From: Escherichia phage vB_EcoM-UFV10 | Reading direction: 5' to 3' (one strand) | Sequence record: OP555981.1 | DNA length: 64,000 nt | Shown here: one piece after another, positions 6,743 through 57,391 of the stretch | Numbering within the stretch: position 1 is the stretch's first letter | How the letters are laid out: every line of letters starts with the position of its first letter | Notes under the pieces: model-generated | The model's input: only the letters and a program-made list of their open reading frames with translations | Databases searched by the model: none | What the model was told of the DNA's origin: nothing | Program-made: the position numbers and the translations under genes

Positions 6743-7176
6743 TAGCTTACACGAACATTAATCACTGCGCTACGAGGAACTACAGAGTATTCTCCAGCAT
6801 GAACTACGTTCAGAAGTTCAACGCCATCTTCAATCCACTGGTCAGTTACCCAACCGCCGACCGGATTCGCGAATGGACGACGAATGTAAACCGCCTTACA
6901 CAACAAATCAGTCGGATCTTCAGGTTTTTCAATTTCTGTCAATAGATTAAAATCTTCTTCATAGATGATGAATGATGATACCCTTCCATAATAGTTTCTA
7001 ATTTCCATGTACACTGTACCAATGAGAATTCCGCTATTAACCCTAATAACAGTAAAAGGATATCCGCCAGTTGTACCAAGAAGTTCCCAAAACTTGCTAT
7101 CAGTCGTATTCGACATTGTCTGGAAATCAATTTCAGATGGTTTTTTCATTTGATACGCAGTATTAATTTTAATCAT
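6742..7176 (-). CDS. hypothetical protein, paralog of 6177-6668
   Basis: 144-aa ORF; C-terminal VTDQWIEDGVELLNVVHAGEYSVVPRS resembles neighbour. Confidence 0.45.
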   Translation of the reverse strand: MIKINTAYQMKKPSEIDFQTMSNTTDSKFWELLGTTGGYPFTVIRVNSGILIGTVYMEIRNYYGRVSSFIIYEEDFNLLTEIEKPEDPTDLLCKAVYIRRPFANPVGGWVTDQWIEDGVELLNVVHAGEYSVVPRSAVINVRVS

Positions 7177-7185
7177 AATTTTCCT

Positions 7186-7698
7186 TTAATCTAAGGTAAT
7201 AAAGCCTTTTAATTCGGCATGCGATTTGCGGAACATTACTTGGTGACCGCCAATGATAACTTGGTCATCAGGAACTTCATAAATCGCAATGTACATTCCA
7301 CGATCTTTTAAGTCTTCACGCTCTTCTCGAGTAAACCATCTCATTATATCATATTCACTAGCGAAAGCAAAATGATATAATGCAATAAACCACAATGGAA
7401 TATAATTTTCAATTCGTGAATAATCTTTATTCCATTTAGTTTTAATAGCATCATTAGCATTTTCAACTAATAACTTATCATCGTGTGGAATAGGAATACT
7501 TTCATGACTTTCATAATCATTGCTATGATGATGAAATGACGATGAATTAATACCGCAAAATTTTAGCCAAGTTCGAGTTTTCATAGAATCAAATCCACGA
7601 TAAGGAGTTGATTGAACGCATAACTCTTGCCTAATTTTCACTATACCACTATCATCATTTAATGCGCTAAACGATGATTCAACACGATAAATTTTCAT
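7186..7698 (-). CDS. hypothetical protein
   Basis: 170-aa ORF, ATG start, early promoter upstream. Confidence 0.45.
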   Translation of the reverse strand: MKIYRVESSFSALNDDSGIVKIRQELCVQSTPYRGFDSMKTRTWLKFCGINSSSFHHHSNDYESHESIPIPHDDKLLVENANDAIKTKWNKDYSRIENYIPLWFIALYHFAFASEYDIMRWFTREEREDLKDRGMYIAIYEVPDDQVIIGGHQVMFRKSHAELKGFITLD

Positions 7699-7761
7699 TT
7701 TATTATCCTCAGTAGCTATGGTGTTATAATACCATAACTAACCGAGGAAGTAAACAACTTT

Positions 7762-8445
7762 TTATCGTTTTGTTGGAAGAGATAGAGGATCACACTCTTC
7801 CTCTGATGGAGCGTCTTCAAGACCCATAGCATAGCGCAAAGCATACTTCATCATCAGGATGTCTTTCGCACAGTCATGAATAGAATCATGCGCAACGAAT
7901 CCATCTAAAGTTCCTTTTGGAAGAGGACACGTGGTCATATCACGAACAAGGAGAAGTGCTTCAATTCTGGTACGAATATCACGCTGATTCCAAAATTTAC
8001 AAGGTTCTAACTTAAATGTATCAAGCTCATTCTCGGAAACGCCGTTAAAACGTTGAATATCGCGAATGAGATCGACTAAAATTGGAAAATCAAACGACAT
8101 TCCACGGCACCAGCCTTGAGATTTCCAAGGATCGATATTATGCGCATTGATGTAATCATTAAATTTTGCAATACCATCGATAGTGCTTACATCTTCATCT
8201 GATGGCGCAATATTTTTTCGAGCTTCAGGAGATTGATTCTTCCACCATTCAATAGTGCTTTTAGTAAAAAGACGGTGTCCTTTTTGACTTTTTAAGTCAA
8301 ATTTAATTTTAATGCCACGTGAAACTAGTTCATCGAATGTTTCAACAACTTCTGGGTTAGGGTCAAAAGCAATTACAGCCAAATCAATAACAGCTGCTTT
8401 TTCACCACTTCCCATCGTTTCAAAATCTATAATAAAATCAAACAT
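7762..8445 (-). CDS. dexA: exonuclease A (DEDD-type 3'-5' exonuclease)
   Basis: 227-aa ORF, N-terminal IIDFETMG exonuclease motif, length and position match T4 dexA. Confidence 0.8.
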   Translation of the reverse strand: MFDFIIDFETMGSGEKAAVIDLAVIAFDPNPEVVETFDELVSRGIKIKFDLKSQKGHRLFTKSTIEWWKNQSPEARKNIAPSDEDVSTIDGIAKFNDYINAHNIDPWKSQGWCRGMSFDFPILVDLIRDIQRFNGVSENELDTFKLEPCKFWNQRDIRTRIEALLLVRDMTTCPLPKGTLDGFVAHDSIHDCAKDILMMKYALRYAMGLEDAPSEEECDPLSLPTKR

Positions 8446-8687
8446 TAAACTTTCCTCGCTAAATCGCGAATTTGACCTACAGTATAATCTTGGATATAAA
8501 CTTTATTAATAGGCTCATCAATAAATTTTGCCATAGATTCAATATCTTTTTGCATCTCTTCAAGACTGTATACTATCTTTGAAGCTTTTTCACGAATAGT
8601 TGCATTTTCAGGTCCTGGATTTTCTTCAATGACAGCTTTAACATTTGCCATAAGAGATTTAAACTGATACCAACTTAATTCAATCAT
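8445..8687 (-). CDS. hypothetical protein
   Basis: 80 aa from internal ATG MIELSWYQ; track N-terminal extension overlaps upstream gene. Confidence 0.4.
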   Translation of the reverse strand: MIELSWYQFKSLMANVKAVIEENPGPENATIREKASKIVYSLEEMQKDIESMAKFIDEPINKVYIQDYTVGQIRDLARKV

Positions 8688-8925
8688 TAATAACCGCCTT
8701 ATAAAGATGGTTAATTTCACCCAAAACATAATCACTGATTGTGACAGTTTTCACTTCGCCGCAAAAGAATTCTAACGCAATTAAATCTCGTTCAATTTCT
8801 TCTAATTGAAGCATTAACTTGCCAGATTCAATTTTTACATTTCTACGATTTTTACTATAAGCTATTTCATAAATTTCGCTCACTTTATCTTGAAGCAGAT
8901 AAAACTGGTCTTTAGTTATTTCCAC
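8680..8925 (-). CDS. hypothetical protein
   Basis: about 81 aa from GTG behind GAGGAA; track start is TTG; start uncertain. Confidence 0.35.
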   Translation of the reverse strand: MEITKDQFYLLQDKVSEIYEIAYSKNRRNVKIESGKLMLQLEEIERDLIALEFFCGEVKTVTISDYVLGEINHLYKAVIND

Positions 8926-9172
8926 GAATAGCTTCCTCAAATTTAATTAGTAATTTACAGACACTTTCATCTAGTGTAATTACCGTATCTGTATTACTGT
9001 GATATGATTGTTTTTCAATTCGTTTAATTGCTAATATAGTATCACTTATAAGATAAAGCTTATGAAGGAGCTCAGCTCCTGTTACCATAACATCGAGATT
9101 ATCTTGCTTATTAGTATGCTTCCTTATACCATCTATTAGACGATTTAAATATTTTGAATTGATGTTAATCAT
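8912..9172 (-). CDS. hypothetical protein
   Basis: 86-aa ORF, ATG start. Confidence 0.4.
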   Translation of the reverse strand: MININSKYLNRLIDGIRKHTNKQDNLDVMVTGAELLHKLYLISDTILAIKRIEKQSYHSNTDTVITLDESVCKLLIKFEEAIRGNN

Positions 9173-9178
9173 ATATCC

Positions 9179-10498
9179 TCACACATAAAATACGTCATAA
9201 CGACCACGGGTAACACCAACATAAAGAAGTTGTTGAGCCAATTCAGCATCTGCATAATGAATACAAGGCGTATAAATGAAAGCACGGTCTACAGACATAC
9301 CCTGAGCTTTATGGAATGTTGATGCAGGAAGTGCTTTCACTTTACTAAACTGTGATTTAGCATCCCAAAAATCACTCCATGGAGCTTTTCCGCCTTTGTT
9401 CAAATTTTTATAAGTTTCTGCCGTTTTACCTAAAAATAAGTTAAACTTATACAGCTCTTCATCAGATGAAATTATTTTAATCTTTTCACGATAATATTCA
9501 TCATCGCCGTAAGTTTCTACTGTTAAATCCCAATGACGAATTAGATATTCTCCAGGAACACCACGAGCTTTAACAAATGTTGATGTATATTCTGCTTCTA
9601 TAATACGAACTAATTGTCCGTTATTAAAAATAATTTCTGACACAGGCTTTCCATCAATTTTATATGTTTTAATTAATGGTTCCTGCATTACAATAATTTC
9701 ACCGACAATAAAATCTTTATCAGTTTCAAAAATCTTTTTACGAATAATGCTATTTAACTTGTCAACAGATTTATTCGTAAATGCCATTACGCGATTTTCA
9801 AACAAATCATCTAGTGATTTGACGATTGAAAAATAATTTACCATAAAATCGCGTAAAGCGGTATCACCAGTAAATCCACGTACTCCATGCCCGTCAACAA
9901 CTTTATCATAAATCCACTTACCGTTGCGAACATCAGTAGCTACATCAATAATAGGAGCATTACTGCGTTTAACTTCAGTGAGTTCACACTGATAAAAATC
10001 TTTGTGTGTAAAAAATGGACTGATATAAGCAGTGTTTTCTCCTGGGTCAACAGGTCTAATTTGCTTATTATCACCTATTCCAATTATAGTACACCACGGC
10101 GGGATAGTTGAAAGCAGAATTTTAAATAGCTTTCTATCATACATTGACACTTCGTCGCAGATTAATACCCTGCATTTAGCTAAATCTGGTACTTCCTTCT
10201 GTTCAAAAAGAACGTTTTCTTCATATGTTACGGGGTTAATTTTAAGAATACTGTGAATAGTACTCGCTTCTTTCCCCGACAGTTTTGAAAGAATCTTTTT
10301 AGCTGCATGTGTAGGAGCTGCCAAAATGATACCAGTTTCGCCCGTAGATATTAAAGCTTCAATGATGAACTTAGTAAGAGTAGTCTTACCAGTACCAGCA
10401 GGTCCATTAATAGTTACATGATGTTTCTTTTCTTTAATAGCCCTCATAACGATGTTAAAGGCATTTTTCTGACCTTCGGTCAAATCATCAAATGTCAT
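9179..10498 (-). CDS. dda: Dda DNA helicase (SF1B)
   Basis: 439-aa ORF, Walker A GPAGTGKTT, length and position match T4 Dda. Confidence 0.9.
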   Translation of the reverse strand: MTFDDLTEGQKNAFNIVMRAIKEKKHHVTINGPAGTGKTTLTKFIIEALISTGETGIILAAPTHAAKKILSKLSGKEASTIHSILKINPVTYEENVLFEQKEVPDLAKCRVLICDEVSMYDRKLFKILLSTIPPWCTIIGIGDNKQIRPVDPGENTAYISPFFTHKDFYQCELTEVKRSNAPIIDVATDVRNGKWIYDKVVDGHGVRGFTGDTALRDFMVNYFSIVKSLDDLFENRVMAFTNKSVDKLNSIIRKKIFETDKDFIVGEIIVMQEPLIKTYKIDGKPVSEIIFNNGQLVRIIEAEYTSTFVKARGVPGEYLIRHWDLTVETYGDDEYYREKIKIISSDEELYKFNLFLGKTAETYKNLNKGGKAPWSDFWDAKSQFSKVKALPASTFHKAQGMSVDRAFIYTPCIHYADAELAQQLLYVGVTRGRYDVFYV

Positions 10499-10806
10499 CG
10501 TAAATTCCCTGCAATTGGTATACTAACAATACGCCCAGTATCTAAAATTCGCCGATATAATCTTTGTGTGTCTACATCAGGCTTAACGTGTTTAACTTCT
10601 ATTTTATTAAACCAAAACTTGCGTGGAGTCTCAACTAGTCTTGGAATTCCCATACCTAAAGCTAGTTTATATTGGTCTTTGAGAGTAGTAAAAACTCTAT
10701 CAGCAATCTCTCTTTCAAAAAACACAGCAGGACGATGTTCATCAAGAGGAACTGGCGCAGTAAATCCATCTTTGTCTCGGTAAACTATCGCATATACATA
10801 AACCAT
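10495..10806 (-). CDS. hypothetical protein (dda.1 position)
   Basis: 103-aa ORF, ATG start, ATGA overlap with dda. Confidence 0.45.
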   Translation of the reverse strand: MVYVYAIVYRDKDGFTAPVPLDEHRPAVFFEREIADRVFTTLKDQYKLALGMGIPRLVETPRKFWFNKIEVKHVKPDVDTQRLYRRILDTGRIVSIPIAGNLR

Positions 10807-10807
10807 A

Positions 10808-11563
10808 TTATCCTCGGATAAGTTTAAAAATTGAACAATTTAGCGGGTATCCTCTTTTCAGTTTAAGTTTATCAATAAAAGACAAGTTTTGATACCGCTC
10901 TACACCTTGAATAATTTTATCACACATATCATATTGCATTTCTGCTTCTGACAACTTTTTCACAATTTTCCAATCCGAGCCTTTAAGAAGAACGTTCAGT
11001 TTAACAACTTCAGCGCCTTCTGCTATGCGAGAACCATCAATACGAGCTTTAAGTGCTATAATCCTTAGCTTAATGTCAGAGGTCTGTTTTGATTTAGAAA
11101 GCTGAGAAATGTGTTCAATTCGATTTTCACGCTTTTTCTGTATAGCTTTAATTTGATTATAAGTCTTTTTGATTTTAGCCCATTTCTTTTCATCTAAATT
11201 TAGTTTATGAACTTTTTTCGCAGATGAACGACCAATTCGCAAAGCAAATAAATCACGCTTTTCAATCAACTCTTCTAAAGTATAATCAGAACGAAATGTA
11301 TTATACTTTTTCTTTACTGCAATAACGTTCCCTTTAATGTATCCAACGTTATTATCAAAACGTTCTAATGATAATTTCTCTCCTTCAATACGATTATCAA
11401 AAGGTTCTCCTGAATAGGCACAAACTTTTTGATCTAAAATGTTCTTAATGTAATTGAAGTCTAAGTTAAAATCTTTAGAACGTCTTTTTGCAGATGCCTG
11501 AGTGTGCTCTAAACGACGTTTAATTTTACGAATTTGATTATTAGACATATTATGCAGTTTCAT
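10808..11563 (-). CDS. basic hypothetical protein (srd position by synteny)
   Basis: 251-aa ORF, Lys/Arg-rich, ATG start; identity not verifiable from sequence alone. Confidence 0.4.
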   Translation of the reverse strand: MKLHNMSNNQIRKIKRRLEHTQASAKRRSKDFNLDFNYIKNILDQKVCAYSGEPFDNRIEGEKLSLERFDNNVGYIKGNVIAVKKKYNTFRSDYTLEELIEKRDLFALRIGRSSAKKVHKLNLDEKKWAKIKKTYNQIKAIQKKRENRIEHISQLSKSKQTSDIKLRIIALKARIDGSRIAEGAEVVKLNVLLKGSDWKIVKKLSEAEMQYDMCDKIIQGVERYQNLSFIDKLKLKRGYPLNCSIFKLIRG

Positions 11564-15475: not shown

Positions 15476-15483
15476 TATTTATA
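15476..15483 (-). promoter_or_regulatory. late promoter (TATAAATA) for soc
   Basis: forward TATTTATA = minus TATAAATA about 30 nt upstream of the soc ATG. Confidence 0.6.
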
Positions 15484-29249: not shown

Positions 29250-30209
29250 TCACTTCCACTGCATTTCACATGCTAACTGAATGAAAAGATAAACTAGATG
29301 CAATTCAGTATTAGCTGCAATACCATGATACTGATTATTTTCGCCGACAATTTCGTACATACGAATAATACTCTGTGGAGTTACACGTGAATAGATTTCT
29401 TCGGCAAGTTTACCCACGAACCACGAATAATCGGCTGCATATTTTGGCGCTAAAGCTCTGAGTTGTTTAACATCTTTATTTTTGAGAGACTCAAGAACAT
29501 CATCAATAGCACCACGATCGTTAGTAACCAGTGATAAAATACCAGCATCCAAAACACCTTTAGATGAATAACTATCGAGCTCGCCAATAGTTTTACGAAA
29601 ATCAGGAAAATTCTTTTTAACCAAAGCTGCTACAACTTTCATATCAGCTATAGCAATTCCTTCATGCTTACAGATTTCAGTCAACCGACGAATCATCTGC
29701 TTCATCATTTCAATTTTATCTTCATCGGTCGGTTGACCGAATGTGATAACTCGGCAGCGTGACTGAAGCGGTTTAATAATACCATCAATATTGTTAGCAG
29801 TAATAATAATACTACAGTTTGAGCTGTAAGCTTCCATAAAGGAACGAAGATGTCGCTGAGACTCTGCTAATCCTGAACGGTCAAATTCATCAATAACGAT
29901 TACTTTTTGACGACCGTCAAATGAAGCTGCGCTAGCAAAATTAGTCAAAGGACCACGAACGAAATCAATTTTACAATCTGATCCATTCACAAACATCATA
30001 TCAGCATTTACATCATGGCACAATGCTTTTGCTACAGTTGTTTTACCTGTTCCTGGAGAAGGAGAATGAAGAATAATATGTGGAATCTTACCTTTACTTG
30101 TAATAGATTTAAAGGTTTCTTTATCAAAGGCGGGAAGAATACATTCATCGATAGTAGATGGACGATATTTCTGTTCAAGAATGTGTTCTTTTTCATTTAC
30201 GGTAATCAT
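29250..30209 (-). CDS. 44: clamp loader AAA+ ATPase subunit
   Basis: 319 aa from ATG (track start is TTG); Walker [11 protein letters not shown], Walker B VIVIDEFD. Confidence 0.9.
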
Positions 30210-30241
30210 AATTTCCTCATTCAAGTTTTAGTGTAAATTAT

Positions 30242-30260: not shown

Positions 30261-30947
30261 TTAAAAATCGTGGGTAGAATCAGCTTCAAGAGCTACTACA
30301 TAATTCGCGTGTTCACCTTCAAATTTAGCAGCACCTTGTTTACCTTTTGCCCAGAGCAGAAGTTTATAATTTCCTGGTTGCATTTTCATATTTGCCATAT
30401 TGATAATGAAATTAAATGTATTTTCACCATCATAATCACCAAGAGTCAAAGAATATTTAACACGGGTCAGAGCAGAATCTTCTACTTTATTAAAACCGTT
30501 AATTACGATTTTACCTTCTTTTACCGTGATAGCAATTGTATCAATCTGCAGACCACGAGATACACGCAACAGTTGTTGAAGGTCTTCAGCTTTAATTTCA
30601 GTAACAACAGATGCTACCGGGAATGGAATTGGTTTATTAGGAGCAACTACTGTACTCGGATCGGCTGCTGGCCAAAAAATTGTTGAACGGGCATCAGCAA
30701 TTTTAATATTTCCATCTTCTGACTGGGAAATTTCTGCATCATCATTAACTAGAGACAGAATACCGAGAAAACCGTTCAAATCGTAAATTGCTACATCAAA
30801 ATCAATAACGTCAGAAATATTTGCTTCCGCATAAGTTGTACCATTAACTGCGCGAGTCATAATAAATTGACCGGATTTAAGCATAATACCAGAGTTAATA
30901 GTAGCGAAATTTTTAAGCAGAGCAGTAGTATCTTTAGACAGTTTCAT
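30261..30947 (-). CDS. 45: sliding clamp
   Basis: 228 aa as T4 gp45; position after 44/62; hairpin downstream. Confidence 0.85.
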   Translation of the reverse strand: MKLSKDTTALLKNFATINSGIMLKSGQFIMTRAVNGTTYAEANISDVIDFDVAIYDLNGFLGILSLVNDDAEISQSEDGNIKIADARSTIFWPAADPSTVVAPNKPIPFPVASVVTEIKAEDLQQLLRVSRGLQIDTIAITVKEGKIVINGFNKVEDSALTRVKYSLTLGDYDGENTFNFIINMANMKMQPGNYKLLLWAKGKQGAAKFEGEHANYVVALEADSTHDF

Positions 30948-31002
30948 GTAATTTCCTTCAATTCAAATGAGATTTAATTTTATAACTAATTTAATAAAGC
31001 AA

Positions 31003-31392
31003 TTAACGATTAAAATCAGCCGCAATTGTTTCCACAACAATTTGAGCAGCAACAATTAGACGTTCATCTGCATTACCACAATAATCATCTTCAAGGCGTT
31101 CACCGCATGAAGTCATAATAAATTTAGCACCGGCGTTTAGGGATTCTGTAGTATGTTTGCGCATTAGTTCAATCCATTTATTACTTACTTCACGATCGAT
31201 AGCTTCATAATACGCATGACGAGCAGGTGCAGATTTAATTTTGTTCTGAATAACTTCCATTGCGTTATCAGAAAGAGACAAAACCCATGCTCGACGAATT
31301 TTATTTTGGTTTTGTGGATTTGATTCAGAACGCACGTGTTTTGGCTGAATATCTTTTACGTCAACAGTATAATTCACAGTAATTTTAGTCAT
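31003..31392 (-). CDS. rpbA: RNA polymerase-binding protein A (by size and synteny)
   Basis: 129 aa, immediately downstream of gene 45 as in T4. Confidence 0.55.
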
Positions 31393-31401
31393 AATACACC
31401 T

Positions 31402-31593
31402 TTAGTCATAATAATCAGTAACAGTCCAAGCTTCATTTCTATTGGACATTATTTTTGTATATTCTGCTTTAAATGCATTCCTAAGCATAGATTCAGTAAC
31501 TATATGCTCTTCATTAGAAAAATTATTTCTCAGAATATATCGTTTTATTTCAGGAATAGTTAATAGATGCTGTCCAGTTGAATATTCTGCCAC
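31402..31593 (-). CDS. hypothetical protein
   Basis: 63-aa ORF with apparent GTG start behind GGAGG; overlaps the late promoter on the opposite strand. Confidence 0.35.
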   Translation of the reverse strand: MAEYSTGQHLLTIPEIKRYILRNNFSNEEHIVTESMLRNAFKAEYTKIMSNRNEAWTVTDYYD

Positions 31594-31603
31594 AGTTCCT
31601 CCG

Positions 31604-31611
31604 TATAAATA
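31604..31611 (+). promoter_or_regulatory. late promoter (TATAAATA) for the plus-strand HNH endonuclease
   Basis: exact TATAAATA on forward strand about 33 nt upstream of the ATG at 31645; AAAAGGA SD. Confidence 0.55.
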
Positions 31612-31644
31612 TGTTTATCACTCGCTGTATCAAAAGGATATGTT

Positions 31645-32361
31645 ATGAATTATAAACTAATTTATGAAAAGTTAATCTCTAATGCTAAATCTCGAAAACT
31701 TGATTGCTATACTGAATCTCATCACATTATACCGCGCTGTTTAAATGGAAGTGATGATGCTTCAAACTTAGTAGATTTAACACCAGAAGAGCACTATGTA
31801 GCTCATCAACTTTTAGTAAAAATTTATCCTTCTGAACCAAAATTAGTCTATGCTGCTAACATGATGACAGTTTCTACGAAATACGCTAAACGCAACAATA
31901 AAACTTTCGGTTGGATTCGTCGTAAACTCTGGGAAATAGAAAAGAACAAAGAATTCTCCCAGGAGACACGAAAGAAAATGTCTGATGCAGTAGCTAATAA
32001 AGCAAGATTAACTTGTCCTCATTGCGGTAAGTCTGGATTAAGCGGAAATATGAATCGTTGGCATTTTGATAACTGCCCAAATCACCCTAATCCTAAAATT
32101 AGACCACCAATGTCTAAAGAACACAGAAATAATATCTCAAACGGGCTTAAAGCAATCGTTCTTGAAGAAACATCCTGCGAATTCTGCGGAATGATAGGCA
32201 AGAAATGCGTTATCGCAGCGCATAGAAATTTCTGCAAGAAAAATCCAAATGGACGCAAGAAAACTGAAAAGACTGGTACTTGCGTCCATTGTGGTAAAGT
32301 TACCACTTTCGGAAATTTATCAAGATGGCATAATGATAACTGTAAATATAAACTTAGCTAA
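31645..32361 (+). CDS. HNH homing endonuclease with three C-terminal zinc-finger repeats
   Basis: 238 aa; HNH core ESHHIIPRCLNGSDDASNLVDLTPEEHYVAHQLL; three CxxCG...RWHxDNC repeats; plus strand with TATAAATA upstream. Confidence 0.8.
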   Translation: MNYKLIYEKLISNAKSRKLDCYTESHHIIPRCLNGSDDASNLVDLTPEEHYVAHQLLVKIYPSEPKLVYAANMMTVSTKYAKRNNKTFGWIRRKLWEIEKNKEFSQETRKKMSDAVANKARLTCPHCGKSGLSGNMNRWHFDNCPNHPNPKIRPPMSKEHRNNISNGLKAIVLEETSCEFCGMIGKKCVIAAHRNFCKKNPNGRKKTEKTGTCVHCGKVTTFGNLSRWHNDNCKYKLS

Positions 32362-34042
32362 TCTTAGCTAAACTAAATCTACCAACTTTTTCCATCTGAA
32401 TATGCTGACCATATTCTTGTGGGTCATGGTCTTTATGTGAAATTATGAAGAAGTTGGTATCCTTCAAACCATCTAAAATTTTAGCTACATTTTTAATACC
32501 TTCAGCATCAAATGCACCGTCATACACTTCATCAAGAAATAAACAACTTATTTTAACACCTGAAACTTTTTCAGCAATATCACGCCAAGTAAATAAAAGA
32601 GCAATATCAATTCGCGCTTTTTCACCTTGACTGAATGAAGCATAACTAAAATCTTCACGACCACGGGATTTAATTGTCTCATTAAATTCTTCATCTAATG
32701 TAAACACATAATCCGCTTCCATTATTTTAAGATAATGGTTAATCTGCTTATTAAATAATGGAATGTACTTTTTAATAATAGCACCTTTAATACCAGAATC
32801 TTTGAGCATATCAGTCAAAATTCCTCGGTGGTATTTTTCCATTACTAAATTAGTTTTTGTCTTAACAATTTTATCAAGTTCTTCTTGAAGCAGTGCTATT
32901 TCATCAGCATGGTCAATAAACTCAGAAGATGCTTTTTCTATAGCCGCTTTAACCTTTTTAGCTTTATCTACTGCTGCGATCAGAGATTGCTTTTTATTGC
33001 GAATATCATTTGCCAACGACTGCTGGGTTTTAATATTATCTCGGTATTCATCAACAAGAACTTTTAAATTATCACGATGTGTTGAAAGATGTTCAAACGA
33101 ATGCGTGCATTCAGAAACTTTATCTTTAATTTTAGAAACAACTTTATCACCGGAACTTAATTGTGACAAACAGGTTGGACATAATCCACCTTCGTGATAC
33201 ATATTAATGACTTTATTATACGAGTCAATTTTTGATTTAATTAAAACTGCTTCTTGACCGATTTTATTAAATGCATCAGTCGGGTCTTCATCTAAAACAA
33301 TATTAACTAATCTTTCATTAGCTTCTTCTATTTCCGATTTTAGCGTTCTAGCTTCTTTTGCCAAATCATCATACATATTTTGAAGACGAGTAAGGTTGTC
33401 ACCCGTTAATTTTTTCTGGCGTTCAACGTTATCATTATATATTTTAATTTGTTGGATAATACTATCTTTTTTAACATCAAGCACTTGGTTTTGTGAATTT
33501 AATTCACGTATTAGTGCTTTATTAAGCTTATCCATTTCAGCTAATGTTCCTACCTCGAGCAGGTCTTCCACAAGCTTTCTTCGCGCAGGGGTCGACAAAC
33601 CCATGAAAGGGGTATACCCTGCTGTACCAAGGACAACAATCTGCTTGAAACTGGCATATGACATTCCGATAAGCTGTTCAAATTCTGCTTGGAAATCTTT
33701 ACTGCTGGCAGATTCATTAAGACGTGTACCGTTAACGGTGATTTCGAAAACGTTTGGTTTTTGTCCTCTTTTGATATAATACTTTTTCTCATCATATTCC
33801 ATCCACAGTTCAACTAAAAGTTCTTTCTTATTTGTGCTGTTTATTAATTGACCTTTCTTTACATCACGAAATGGCTTGCCAAAAAGCCCAAATGTGATGG
33901 CTTCTAACATAGTAGACTTACCACCGCCATTTCGTCCAGTAATAAGAGTTTTTTGAACCTTATCTAATTGAATGTCAATAGGATTTCCACCTACTGACAT
34001 TATATTTTGATACCTAACTCGGTTTAGTTTAAAATTCTTCAC
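32354..34042 (-). CDS. 46: recombination endonuclease subunit (Rad50/SbcC-like ATPase)
   Basis: 562 aa; Walker A GRNGGGKST, central coiled coil, C-terminal signature/Walker B; first codon reads GTG. Confidence 0.9.
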   Translation of the reverse strand: MKNFKLNRVRYQNIMSVGGNPIDIQLDKVQKTLITGRNGGGKSTMLEAITFGLFGKPFRDVKKGQLINSTNKKELLVELWMEYDEKKYYIKRGQKPNVFEITVNGTRLNESASSKDFQAEFEQLIGMSYASFKQIVVLGTAGYTPFMGLSTPARRKLVEDLLEVGTLAEMDKLNKALIRELNSQNQVLDVKKDSIIQQIKIYNDNVERQKKLTGDNLTRLQNMYDDLAKEARTLKSEIEEANERLVNIVLDEDPTDAFNKIGQEAVLIKSKIDSYNKVINMYHEGGLCPTCLSQLSSGDKVVSKIKDKVSECTHSFEHLSTHRDNLKVLVDEYRDNIKTQQSLANDIRNKKQSLIAAVDKAKKVKAAIEKASSEFIDHADEIALLQEELDKIVKTKTNLVMEKYHRGILTDMLKDSGIKGAIIKKYIPLFNKQINHYLKIMEADYVFTLDEEFNETIKSRGREDFSYASFSQGEKARIDIALLFTWRDIAEKVSGVKISCLFLDEVYDGAFDAEGIKNVAKILDGLKDTNFFIISHKDHDPQEYGQHIQMEKVGRFSLAKIS

Positions 34043-34302
34043 AAAAGATTCCTTTTAATGTATCTTTTAGACCATTCTATCATATCATCATAATCTAAAA
34101 AGTATTCATCAAATTCAGCCATGCAAACAACACCTTGTGCTGCTTTTGATGTGATATAAATTATTCCAACATATCTAGAATCTTCTTCGGTATAATCAAT
34201 ATTTGCTATGAATTCATCATTAATGTCAAATGTCGAAAACTTCACAGTATGCATCCTTAATACAAGATACAGCCATATCTTGTAATGATTTAGGTGTATC
34301 AT
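34039..34302 (-). CDS. hypothetical protein
   Basis: 87-aa ORF, ATG start. Confidence 0.4.
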   Translation of the reverse strand: MIHLNHYKIWLYLVLRMHTVKFSTFDINDEFIANIDYTEEDSRYVGIIYITSKAAQGVVCMAEFDEYFLDYDDMIEWSKRYIKRNLL

Positions 34303-34489
34303 TATCTAAAATGTTGAAGTTAAAAGATACAGCCCAATCTGTACAGACCGTAACCTTTTTAATACAATTATCTTCAACCTCTAACGGTTCAAACCAATAT
34401 TCAATAATTTCTTTATGCCCAATATCATCTTTTACTTCGCATTCAAAATGCTGACTCATCATAACATTTTTAAATTCATCAAAAGTCAT
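34226..34489 (-). CDS. hypothetical protein
   Basis: 87-aa ORF, ATG start. Confidence 0.4.
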   Translation of the reverse strand: MTFDEFKNVMMSQHFECEVKDDIGHKEIIEYWFEPLEVEDNCIKKVTVCTDWAVSFNFNILDNDTPKSLQDMAVSCIKDAYCEVFDI

Positions 34490-35505
34490 TGTGTTGCCTC
34501 TACATATAGCTGGTTTGCATATTGAATAAGTGCTTCACGATCAGAATCAGTGATGTCTGGAATTGCATTAATGTATTCTTCCATCAACGTCTGAAGAGAT
34601 TGAACTTCAACTTCTTCACTGTCATCTGACTCGACAGAGTTATCAATTTTTGACACAACTCGTAATGAATGCACAACTTTTTCTAGTTCAGATTCGAACT
34701 TCGTCAGATTTTTGTCTACTTCAGTTACTATAACACGTACTGATAGATTTGTAAAATCTTTATAGTCAATTTTTCCTTTAAATGGATAATGAATTCTACG
34801 ATGCCAGGTAGTATTGTTTGGAATAAATTCCATTCGTTCTGTTTCTGTATCAAACATCCAGAACCCACGAGGGTCATTCTCGTCACCTGCAGTTAGTGTC
34901 CATGGTGTCCCAATATATCTGACGTTAGCAGCCTCAGAGATAGTATGGAAGTGACCAGACCACACTTCTTTATAAGTCTTAAGGAAATCAGGTTCAAGAC
35001 CATGAGATTTCATTCCTTTATAAAAATAAAATCCGTTCAGTTCCCAGTGACCGACGCAAAAAGAAGCAGATGAAGTTTTGATGTGCTCAAGAATTTCACC
35101 AGTATTTTCTTCACACATCCAAGGAATTAAATCAATTAAACATCCGTCAAAATCTACTGTAGTAGGCTTATCATATACTTTAACATTAGGATATTTAGCC
35201 AAAAGCTCAGTAGAAGCATTTGGATGCATTACATTTTTATAGTGGAGATCGTGATTTCCTACAATAGTATGTAGGGTAATACCAGCATCATCAAGCATTT
35301 GAACTATTTCACGGGCAAACTCCATAGTTTTATGCGTGATCGCTTTTCGCACATCAAAAATATCACCGTATTGAATCCAAGTAGTAATTCCATTTTTCTT
35401 AGAATATTCTATCGCTTGCTTAATTCCATCAATTTGAATACCGCGAATCCACTCATCATCGGCTTTAACGCCTAAATGCCAATCACCTAAATTTAAAATT
35501 TTCAT
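34486..35505 (-). CDS. 47: recombination endonuclease subunit (Mre11/SbcD-like)
   Basis: 339 aa; calcineurin-like phosphoesterase motifs (GDWHLG, GNHD, GHWE). Confidence 0.9.
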   Translation of the reverse strand: MKILNLGDWHLGVKADDEWIRGIQIDGIKQAIEYSKKNGITTWIQYGDIFDVRKAITHKTMEFAREIVQMLDDAGITLHTIVGNHDLHYKNVMHPNASTELLAKYPNVKVYDKPTTVDFDGCLIDLIPWMCEENTGEILEHIKTSSASFCVGHWELNGFYFYKGMKSHGLEPDFLKTYKEVWSGHFHTISEAANVRYIGTPWTLTAGDENDPRGFWMFDTETERMEFIPNNTTWHRRIHYPFKGKIDYKDFTNLSVRVIVTEVDKNLTKFESELEKVVHSLRVVSKIDNSVESDDSEEVEVQSLQTLMEEYINAIPDITDSDREALIQYANQLYVEATQ

Positions 35506-57349: not shown

Positions 57350-57391
57350 ATATACCCCTTTAGTTAGATAAACCTATTTATAACTTTTGCA

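Follow-up and report, generated by a model that had tools for sequence, protein, structure and literature searches.

How a single gene came to run against all of its neighbors, and what it does there, is the question raised by a locus of Escherichia phage vB_EcoM-UFV10 (record OP555981.1), of which a stretch of 64,000 nucleotides, hereafter the window, was analyzed. A plus-strand open reading frame (ORF) encoding 238 amino acids lies at 31645-32361 (ATG at 31645, TAA at 32359-32361), and its listed neighbors (genes 44, 45, rpbA, 45.2, 46, 46.1, 46.2, and 47) are all on the minus strand. The product is almost certainly a homing endonuclease of the Mob type, and the gene itself was already known; what is new is its apparently complete linkage to a one-sided tract at the 3′ end of gene 46, together with a promoter-side mimic of that gene's D-loop codons.

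Identity of the encoded protein

Regarding its family, the protein matched PHROG 655, named "homing endonuclease", with an E value of 9e-69, and it had 2304 database relatives at E ≤ 0.001. Among the T4 Mob proteins, the best match was MobB (44% identity over 126 amino acids, E 2e-29), along with MobE (42.5% over 120 amino acids, E 1e-28), MobD (53% over 75 amino acids), and MobC (37%); these matches, with E values of about 1e-22 to 2e-29, were confined to the N-terminal part of ∼110 amino acids (alignments within residues 1 to ∼134), and past residue ∼110 there was no likeness to MobB. The Mob group is defined by a common HNH domain and a C-terminal domain that is individual to each member (PMC2790892).

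The HNH catalytic core corresponds to residues 24-54 (31714-31806; ESHHIIPRC...NLVDLTPEEHYVAH), and in an alignment of 26 homologues the residues E24, H26, H27, P30, G35, N41, L45, H50, and H54 are invariant, so that the core is not degenerate; the plus-strand HNH ORF noticed in an earlier inspection of the letters (the sequence-only reading) is thereby confirmed, with its catalytic residues in place. The core is followed by an arm, proposed to bind DNA, in which helices and fingers are arranged in a defined order: a NUMOD3-like helix at residues 103-115 (31951-31989; SQETRKKMSDAVA; Pfam NUMOD3 E 0.13, below the cut-off; helix 106-117 in the model), a first CCHC zinc finger (C124-x2-C127-x12-H140-x3-C144, 32014-32076), a second NUMOD3-like helix read from the sequence at residues 155-167 (32107-32145; PMSKEHRNNISNG; helix 158-170 in the model), a second, degenerate finger (C178-x2-C181-x11-H193-x3-C197, 32176-32235), and a third finger (C213-x2-C216-x12-H229-x3-C233, 32281-32343). 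The first two fingers were located from the alignment and the model, and C213, C216, H229, and C233 of the third are invariant in the 26 homologues. The sequence-only reading had seen three repeats of an RWHxDNC unit: the three CCHC units are indeed there, but RWHxDNC occurs only in the first and third, the second having AAHRNFC. The AlphaFold model (mean predicted local distance difference test score, pLDDT, of 88) has an N-terminal beta-beta-alpha nuclease core at residues 24-60 and three beta-beta-alpha modules exactly at the finger positions; a sequence search of the solved structures gave no match below E 0.1.

The ORF is under purifying selection, as judged by the ratio of nonsynonymous to synonymous substitution rates (dN/dS 0.06-0.21), and none of the 13 copies examined is disrupted. 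A homing endonuclease, and not a terminase-associated or a restriction-type HNH protein, is indicated by its family, its context, and the presence/absence pattern described below; the enzyme is probably both active and mobile.

As for expression, an exact T4 late-promoter consensus, TATAAATA, is present on the plus strand at 31604-31611, 33 nt upstream of the endonuclease ATG, just as the sequence-only reading had it, and an AAGGA Shine-Dalgarno lies ∼7 nt 5′ of the same ATG. This octamer is depleted in the window, with 3 copies against 10.9 ± 3.1 expected from shuffles (∼3.6-fold), a scarcity that is expected where genes are early and middle, and the copy in front of the endonuclease is the only one on the plus strand; the other exact sites are at 15476-15483 and 57375-57382, both on the minus strand.

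Insertion between genes 46 and 45.2

The 2 kb around the gene (30900-32900) are 100% identical to Escherichia phages vB_EcoM-UFV09, UFV05, UFV06, and UFV11, and 98-99% identical to RB32, RB33, slur07, G4498, and others; by this identity the source phage of the window is a Tequatrovirus. When the same 2 kb were used as the query, 59 of the 590 matching phage records contained all of it, and they are called HEG+ for the homing endonuclease gene (HEG) that they carry; the remaining HEG− records, T4, T2, T6, and RB6 among them, matched in two pieces that together are 714 bp shorter (1287 bp versus 2001 bp). Hence the gene is absent from T4, T2, T6, and most Tequatroviruses, and empty sites are the majority, instead of the gene being universal at this position; together with the Mob-like N-terminus and the PHROG 655 match, they support the free-standing mobile insertion suspected in the sequence-only reading.

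The insertion was not a clean addition. Alignment of the window with T4 and RB32 defined a segment of 794 bp without a T4 counterpart (31587-32380), in place of ∼79 bp of T4 that comprise the 46/45.2 intergenic region, the last gene 46 codons, and the 45.2 start; in T4, 55 bp separate 45.2 and 46 (L002:4248-4302). In the process 45.2 had its start codon and Shine-Dalgarno exchanged, and gene 46 its last four to five codons: T4 begins 45.2 with ATG behind its own, different Shine-Dalgarno, whereas the cassette supplies a minus-strand start signal at 31591-31602, made of GTG (31591-31593) and GGAGGA (reverse complement of 31597-31602), and the T4-type gp46 end ...VGRFTVMV becomes ...VGRFSLAKIS. 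The late promoter was earlier thought to overlap the start of the 63-residue 45.2 ORF; in the window it only abuts the GGAGGA and does not reach the GTG. In the Mosigvirus homologue of contig L016, the late promoter does overlap the 45.2 ATG.

This gene is an ordinary, already annotated kind of element, of which it is an uncharacterized member: in the RB32 record of 2006 it is RB32ORF054w, a [quoted passage not shown], and a 2010 review counted two mob-like HEGs in RB32 (PMC2993671).

A gene 46 tract linked to the endonuclease

In the comparison of nine HEG+ with thirteen HEG− Tequatrovirus sequences, the minus-strand tract at 32362-32565, at the 3′ end of gene 46, differed by 25-32% between the two groups and by ∼1% within HEG+. 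Fixed differences between the groups were found only from the junction to ∼32545, within the final ∼190 bp of gene 46; the 45.2 side had none, its first 207 bp being identical to T4, and away from the tract HEG+ genomes were as different from each other as from HEG− genomes. When only the tract was searched against the database, identities of at least 95% were obtained in exactly 59 records, with the next best at 80.8%; since the records with the tract and those with the gene are both 59, and nothing falls between 81% and 95%, the linkage of the two appears to be complete.

The same end of gene 46 also varies where the endonuclease is absent: HEG− genomes have two sharply distinct haplotypes, T4-type and T2-type, that differ within ∼120 bp (32446-32565 of the window) with a divergence of 0.17, compared with ∼0.01-0.03 nearby (loci L002-L008 and L041-L047); the haplotypes are possible traces of past invasion and loss.

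The same junction in other lineages

Nine lineages in all, with 42-100% protein identity, have the endonuclease between gene 46 and a 45.2-like gene, convergent with 46. Besides the lineage of the window, they include a Mosigvirus-like IMG/VR contig (L016, 64% identity), Mosigvirus 348Ecol098PP (58%), Slopekvirus phT4A (42%), Enterobacter phage EC-F1 (44%), and four metagenomic contigs (48%, 47%, 61%, and 57%). The predicted late promoter is conserved as well, with TATAAATA exact and in the same position in the Mosigvirus-type L016, L050, and L058, and with 6-7 of its 8 positions in L059, L048, L049, and L057.

Presence/absence polymorphism occurs within Mosigvirus and Slopekvirus too, and in both the one-sided divergence of gene 46 recurs in the pairs that were aligned. 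The Mosigvirus L016 and its HEG− relative L019 are 95-100% identical through gene 46, 60-76% over its last ∼240 nt, and 93-100% in 45.2; Slopekvirus phT4A and the HEG− phage Rpl1 are 97-100% identical until nt ∼1500 of gene 46 and ∼70% thereafter. In both genera the empty sites lack a spacer: the stop of 46 overlaps or abuts the start of 45.2. A common "immunity" haplotype shared by all carriers was considered and rejected, the HEG-linked tracts of the lineages being no closer to each other than to HEG− sequences.

A mimic of the gene 46 D-loop codons

Between the late promoter and the endonuclease ORF, roughly from the +1 of the late transcript to the Shine-Dalgarno, the minus strand at 31616-31635 reads F-D-T-A-S-D (reverse complement TTTTGATACAGCGAGTGATA). 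This element matches T2-type gene 46 TTTTGATTCAGCGACCGA at 15 of 18 positions; the latter corresponds to the codons V-F-D-S-A-T-D directly after Walker B, the D-loop position according to the KP15 record. A mimic of ∼18-20 nt of these Walker B/D-loop codons (V-F-D-x-A/P-x-D) stands beside the promoter in all nine lineages, and the promoter octamer and the mimic are 4 nt apart in four of the first five. The elements form two sequence groups, each like another natural allele of gene 46, one FDTATD-like and one FDGPLD-like; in Slopekvirus the element reads F-D-G-P-L-D, the peptide of gp46 in the HEG− phage Rpl1.

The first lead was a cruder local alignment of the promoter region with T2, in which 5 of 300 shuffles were as good; with T4 no signal came from the same alignment (232-284 of 300 shuffles did as well). 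A weight matrix was then built from five promoter-region elements and used to scan gene 46 of 14 HEG− loci in all 3308 registers of position and strand. First in rank was the D-loop site, with a mean score of 11.05 versus 1.63 for the next best (z 5.3). It was also first with a matrix from the Tequatrovirus and Mosigvirus elements alone, and second with one from the other two alone. Out of sample, in four further HEG+ loci of 6,800-11,400 positions, the element upstream of the HEG ranked 1, 1, 1, and 2, and the resident D-loop site ranked 1, 2, and 2 in three of them. Invariant both in the mimic and in gene 46 are TTTGA, the C at position 14, and the GA of GATA.

The synonymous sites of the endonuclease gene are saturated between lineages (proportion of differing synonymous sites, pS, 0.63-0.83), yet this 20-mer has been kept, and it is for this reason taken to be functional. 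That it is a working operator is a tentative proposal, to which we give slightly less than an even chance. Unlikely, though the best of the alternatives, is that the mimic is a relic: the cassette would have entered at a D-loop break with a foreign 3′ end, and the old end would then have been deleted except for its first ∼20 nt. Such an origin would suit an element that reads in frame as a gene 46 peptide (FDTATDK or FDGPLDT), that in Slopekvirus differs from the natural allele at wobble positions only, and whose likeness to gene 46 ends abruptly on either side. A neutral relic, however, should have decayed or been lost from an intergenic space of only ∼50-60 nt shared with promoter and ribosome-binding sites; instead, it persists in nine lineages despite the saturation of the HEG, with the same bases invariant as in gene 46. 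If the relic were real, the mimic would still mark the cleavage site, without a regulatory role.

The second-best genomic match to the element matrix is GTTTGATACAGAAACAGAAC, at 34836-34855 on the minus strand, in gene 47 (codons F-D-T-E-T-E, score 13.4); near the locus there is no further good match. It is present in T4 too and is probably due to chance.

Resident D-loop alleles

The gene 46 of the window has at its own D-loop site (32506-32525, minus strand) the sequence GTATGACGGTGCATTTGATG, which codes for V-Y-D-G-A-F-D and is a proposed immune variant, with Phe changed to Tyr. The conserved Phe of DEVFD is Tyr in the window/RB32/RB51 lineage, in L058, and in phT4A, and it is Met in L050 and L059, so that five of the nine HEG+ lineages have a residue other than Phe; among 17 HEG− sequences, all but KP15 have Phe. 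The lineages are not independent, the non-Phe alleles probably having three origins, and their association with the HEG is suggestive only.

The exception, Klebsiella phage KP15 (L053), has an empty site and yet the HEG-type allele DEVYDGAID, over nt ∼1500-1620 of gene 46, followed by an empty-site C-terminus. Its alternation of allele types looks like that of a recombinant that kept the allele without the gene, and that is possibly immune.

Proposed homing mechanism and alternatives

The following course of events is proposed. Late in a mixed infection, the C-terminal NUMOD3/CCHC arm would bind the Walker B/D-loop codons (DEVFDxAxD) of a HEG− gene 46, ∼150-170 nt before its stop codon, and the HNH domain would nick or cut near them. 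Recombinational repair would copy the HEG from the donor plus the intervening ∼190 bp of gene 46; the two would hence always be inherited together, and the 45.2 side would be left without a signature. The gene 46 allele of the donor would escape cutting by substitutions in or near the D-loop site, and the promoter-side mimic (∼+1 to +20 of the late transcript) would be bound and not cut, giving autorepression as for I-TevI.

This explanation, with its D-loop target, co-conversion, donor immunity, and autorepression, is a likely one on comparative grounds; for the placement of the homing target at the gene 46 D-loop codons, the balance is modestly in favor. A bolder version is more doubtful: the mimic would be a working operator that reveals the homing site and forms the first Mob-type autorepression circuit, the enzymes would be a D-loop-targeting clade in at least three Straboviridae genera, and the Phe-to-Tyr/Met changes would be escape mutations in five of the nine lineages.

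Several observations weigh against homing as proposed. On the protein side, the Pfam models fall below their gathering cut-offs, HNH (PF01844) with 16.9 bits versus 21.4 (E 0.007, residues 23-43) and NUMOD3 (PF07460) with 12.6 bits versus 20.4 (residues 103-115); the HNH motif is present, but PF01844 captures the Mob subfamily poorly, and PF07460 is on record for many homologues of 35-45% identity. Fold searches with the whole model gave weak matches only, to zinc-finger arrays and HNH cores, and the literature search found no paper that studies a gene of the RB32ORF054w type. On the DNA side, the tract region is polymorphic among HEG− genomes too (divergence 0.17), and part of its pattern could stem from a general recombination hot spot; the HEG-linked tracts of different lineages are 0.68-0.71 identical, with no common immunity sequence visible. 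In L056 the mimic is just upstream of the promoter and not downstream, and four HEG+ lineages (L016, EC-F1, L056, and L057) keep the Phe of DEVFD. Finally, resident alleles, supposedly immune, and T4-type ones are not told apart by the weight matrix (11.6 versus 13.1), and the resident site of L057 codes for the same FDGPLD as its own element.

Some of these points recur in an alternative that is rather improbable, namely that the endonuclease is stranded or domesticated and no longer homes, the patchiness and the tract being the work of ordinary recombination at a T-even hot spot. In its favor, the hypervariability of the final ∼200 nt of gene 46 extends to HEG− genomes, Matisse-type Slopekviruses have another endonuclease, of the HNH-AP2 kind, at this junction, KP15 carries the HEG-type Tyr allele without the HEG, and for MobE activity in vitro could not be demonstrated (PMC2790892). 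Against it stand the intact catalytic residues, the integrity of all 13 copies examined with dN/dS of 0.06-0.21, and a perfect linkage (59 versus 59) with a sharp one-sided boundary that recurs in three genera, and passive hitch-hiking offers no explanation for nine diverged lineages at one site. Equally improbable is a cut near the insertion point, within the 46/45.2 spacer or the final gene 46 codons of empty sites only, with the D-loop likeness irrelevant to targeting: these are the only sequences wholly missing from HEG+ genomes, which would make immunity automatic, and fixed differences cluster also at 32368-32401, adjoining the junction, but the spacer is not conserved between genera that use the same junction (there is none in the empty sites of Mosigvirus and Slopekvirus), and the one-sided tract of ∼190-240 nt ending just upstream of the D-loop codons is left unexplained.

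Relation to known systems

Homing as proposed has its closest parallel in T4 MobE, which has a homologous N-terminal HNH domain and, like the present enzyme, is encoded by a free-standing gene that some T-even phages have and others lack. MobE nicks nrdB internally in a strand-specific manner, the flanking sequence being co-converted, and its target is within a conserved neighbor gene, at the codons of functionally critical residues, and >100 nt from the insertion (PMC2790892); the gene 46 target proposed here from sequence comparison has the same properties as this mapped one. The C-terminal domain of MobE is instead unrelated and has no CCHC fingers, where the present enzyme has three, and mobE, between nrdA and nrdB, lacks a dedicated promoter and is transcribed together with nrdA, whereas the gene in the window is antisense to its neighbors with its own TATAAATA. 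Having an own upstream promoter is a trait shared with mobB (PMC2988022), which occupies another site (alpha-gt/alpha-gt.2) and is missing from the window; no other Mob homologue was found within the 64 kb, where T4 mobB, mobC, and mobD have no counterpart. Among the five T4 mob genes, a published mapped target exists for mobE only; that of mobA is gene 39 by personal communication, and those of mobB, mobC, and mobD are unknown (PMC2988022).

As for regulation, the I-TevI operator resembles the homing site (15 of 20 positions identical), overlaps a late promoter, and is bound but poorly cut, which results in autorepression (PMC2988022). I-TevI is also modular like the present enzyme, with a catalytic domain and a DNA-binding arm that includes a zinc finger, and both have a late promoter; it is, however, a GIY-YIG enzyme encoded in the td intron, while the one described here is HNH and free-standing, with a repression that is predicted. 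A further difference is that the I-TevI operator overlies the promoter, and the mimic is mostly just downstream of the −10 element. I-HmuI and I-TevIII, the latter of which contains zinc fingers, combine an HNH domain with an extended DNA-binding region as here, but both are intron-encoded. I-HmuI nicks one strand (PMC2790892). In two published accounts, SegG and SegF are described as cases of intronless homing, with distant cleavage in a conserved neighbor gene and obligatory co-conversion (PMC2993671, PMC2988022); they are GIY-YIG enzymes acting at genes 32 and 56, with cutting shown experimentally, whereas for the present endonuclease cutting is predicted.

The value of the locus is that comparison yields a target predicted at the base-pair level, the gene 46 Walker B/D-loop codons, and a predicted regulatory site, for which natural alleles are on offer that would be sensitive (T2/Rpl1), immune (RB32), and "empty but immune" (KP15). 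The nine diverged pairs of enzyme and site are a way to study how an arm of NUMOD3 helices and CCHC fingers reads DNA. If a D-loop-targeting clade exists, its endonucleases would target the gene for the Rad50-like recombination nuclease of the phage itself, at the catalytic D-loop codons. Homing would further account for the mosaic hot spot that the 3′ end of gene 46 forms in T4-like phages; this mosaicism matters for gene 46 phylogeny and for exclusion between co-infecting therapeutic phages.

Neighboring genes and minor features of the junction

Around the endonuclease, the minus strand encodes gene 44 (29250-30224), gene 45 (30261-30947), rpbA (31003-31392; Pfam Phage_RpbA, E 6e-42), 45.2 (31402-31593, 63 amino acids; Pfam Gp45_2, E 5e-36; the RB32 annotation uses the same ORF), gene 46 (32354-34042), and 46.1 and 46.2 (34039-34489), followed by 47. 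The convergent 3′ overlap with gene 46 that had been described before was found again; it is 8 bp long (32354-32361) and consists of the palindrome TTAGCTAA, with both stop codons inside. A 10-bp tandem repeat, CTTAGCTAAT CTTAGCTAA, at 32353-32371 includes this palindrome and spans both stops, and on the minus strand it codes for the extra ...LAKIS tail of gp46. The junction of RB51 and REP2 is of another kind, with a 4-bp TTAA overlap, gp46 ending in ...SVATIN, and the endonuclease in ...CKHKH.

Regarding RNA structure, a hairpin masking the ribosome-binding site, as in mobE and I-TevI, was tried and rejected, since 31612-31700 folds at −7 kcal/mol with a z of 0.35, no better than shuffles. 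No terminator was found between the convergent stops, the sole terminator-like site being 600 nt inside gene 46 and at chance level; L016 has a GC hairpin between its convergent stops.

The T4 46/45.2 spacer, which carriers have lost, contains TATGCTTTA, then 11 nt, then TATAAT, within the inverted repeat AGAGATTAT...ATAATCTCT. This arrangement fits what we take to be the T4 middle-promoter pattern (MotA box plus −10 element), and looks like a MotA-dependent middle promoter for 45.2-rpbA-45. A promoter scan of the cassette for a replacement came back empty, and the only finds were antisense TATAAT hexamers imposed by the MNY and IIP codons; for this reason 45.2-rpbA-45 may rely on read-through from gene 46 in RB32-type phages. 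An IMG/VR contig with gp46 82% identical (L007:4175-4260) has an empty site, a gp46 two residues longer (...TVMTVS), and a spacer with its own inverted repeat, ATGATGTGGTTATAATGACCACATCA, the spacer being freely remodeled between lineages.

Other endonucleases are found near gene 46 as well. Matisse-type Slopekviruses (L054:1745-2227) have at 46/45.2 an unrelated HNH plus AP2-like endonuclease of 160 amino acids, on the same strand as 46, and their gene 46, too, diverges at its 3′ end, from nt ∼1440. Between 46 and 47, where the window and T4 have 46.1 and 46.2 (34039-34489 in the window), a different annotated homing endonuclease is encoded on the minus strand in Aplg8, G28, T2, and T6 (L037:5159-6001, L040:5159-6001, L041:4683-5287, and L042:4445-5287, respectively); with endonucleases at both 46/45.2 and 46/47, the two ends of gene 46 are thus landing sites for such genes.

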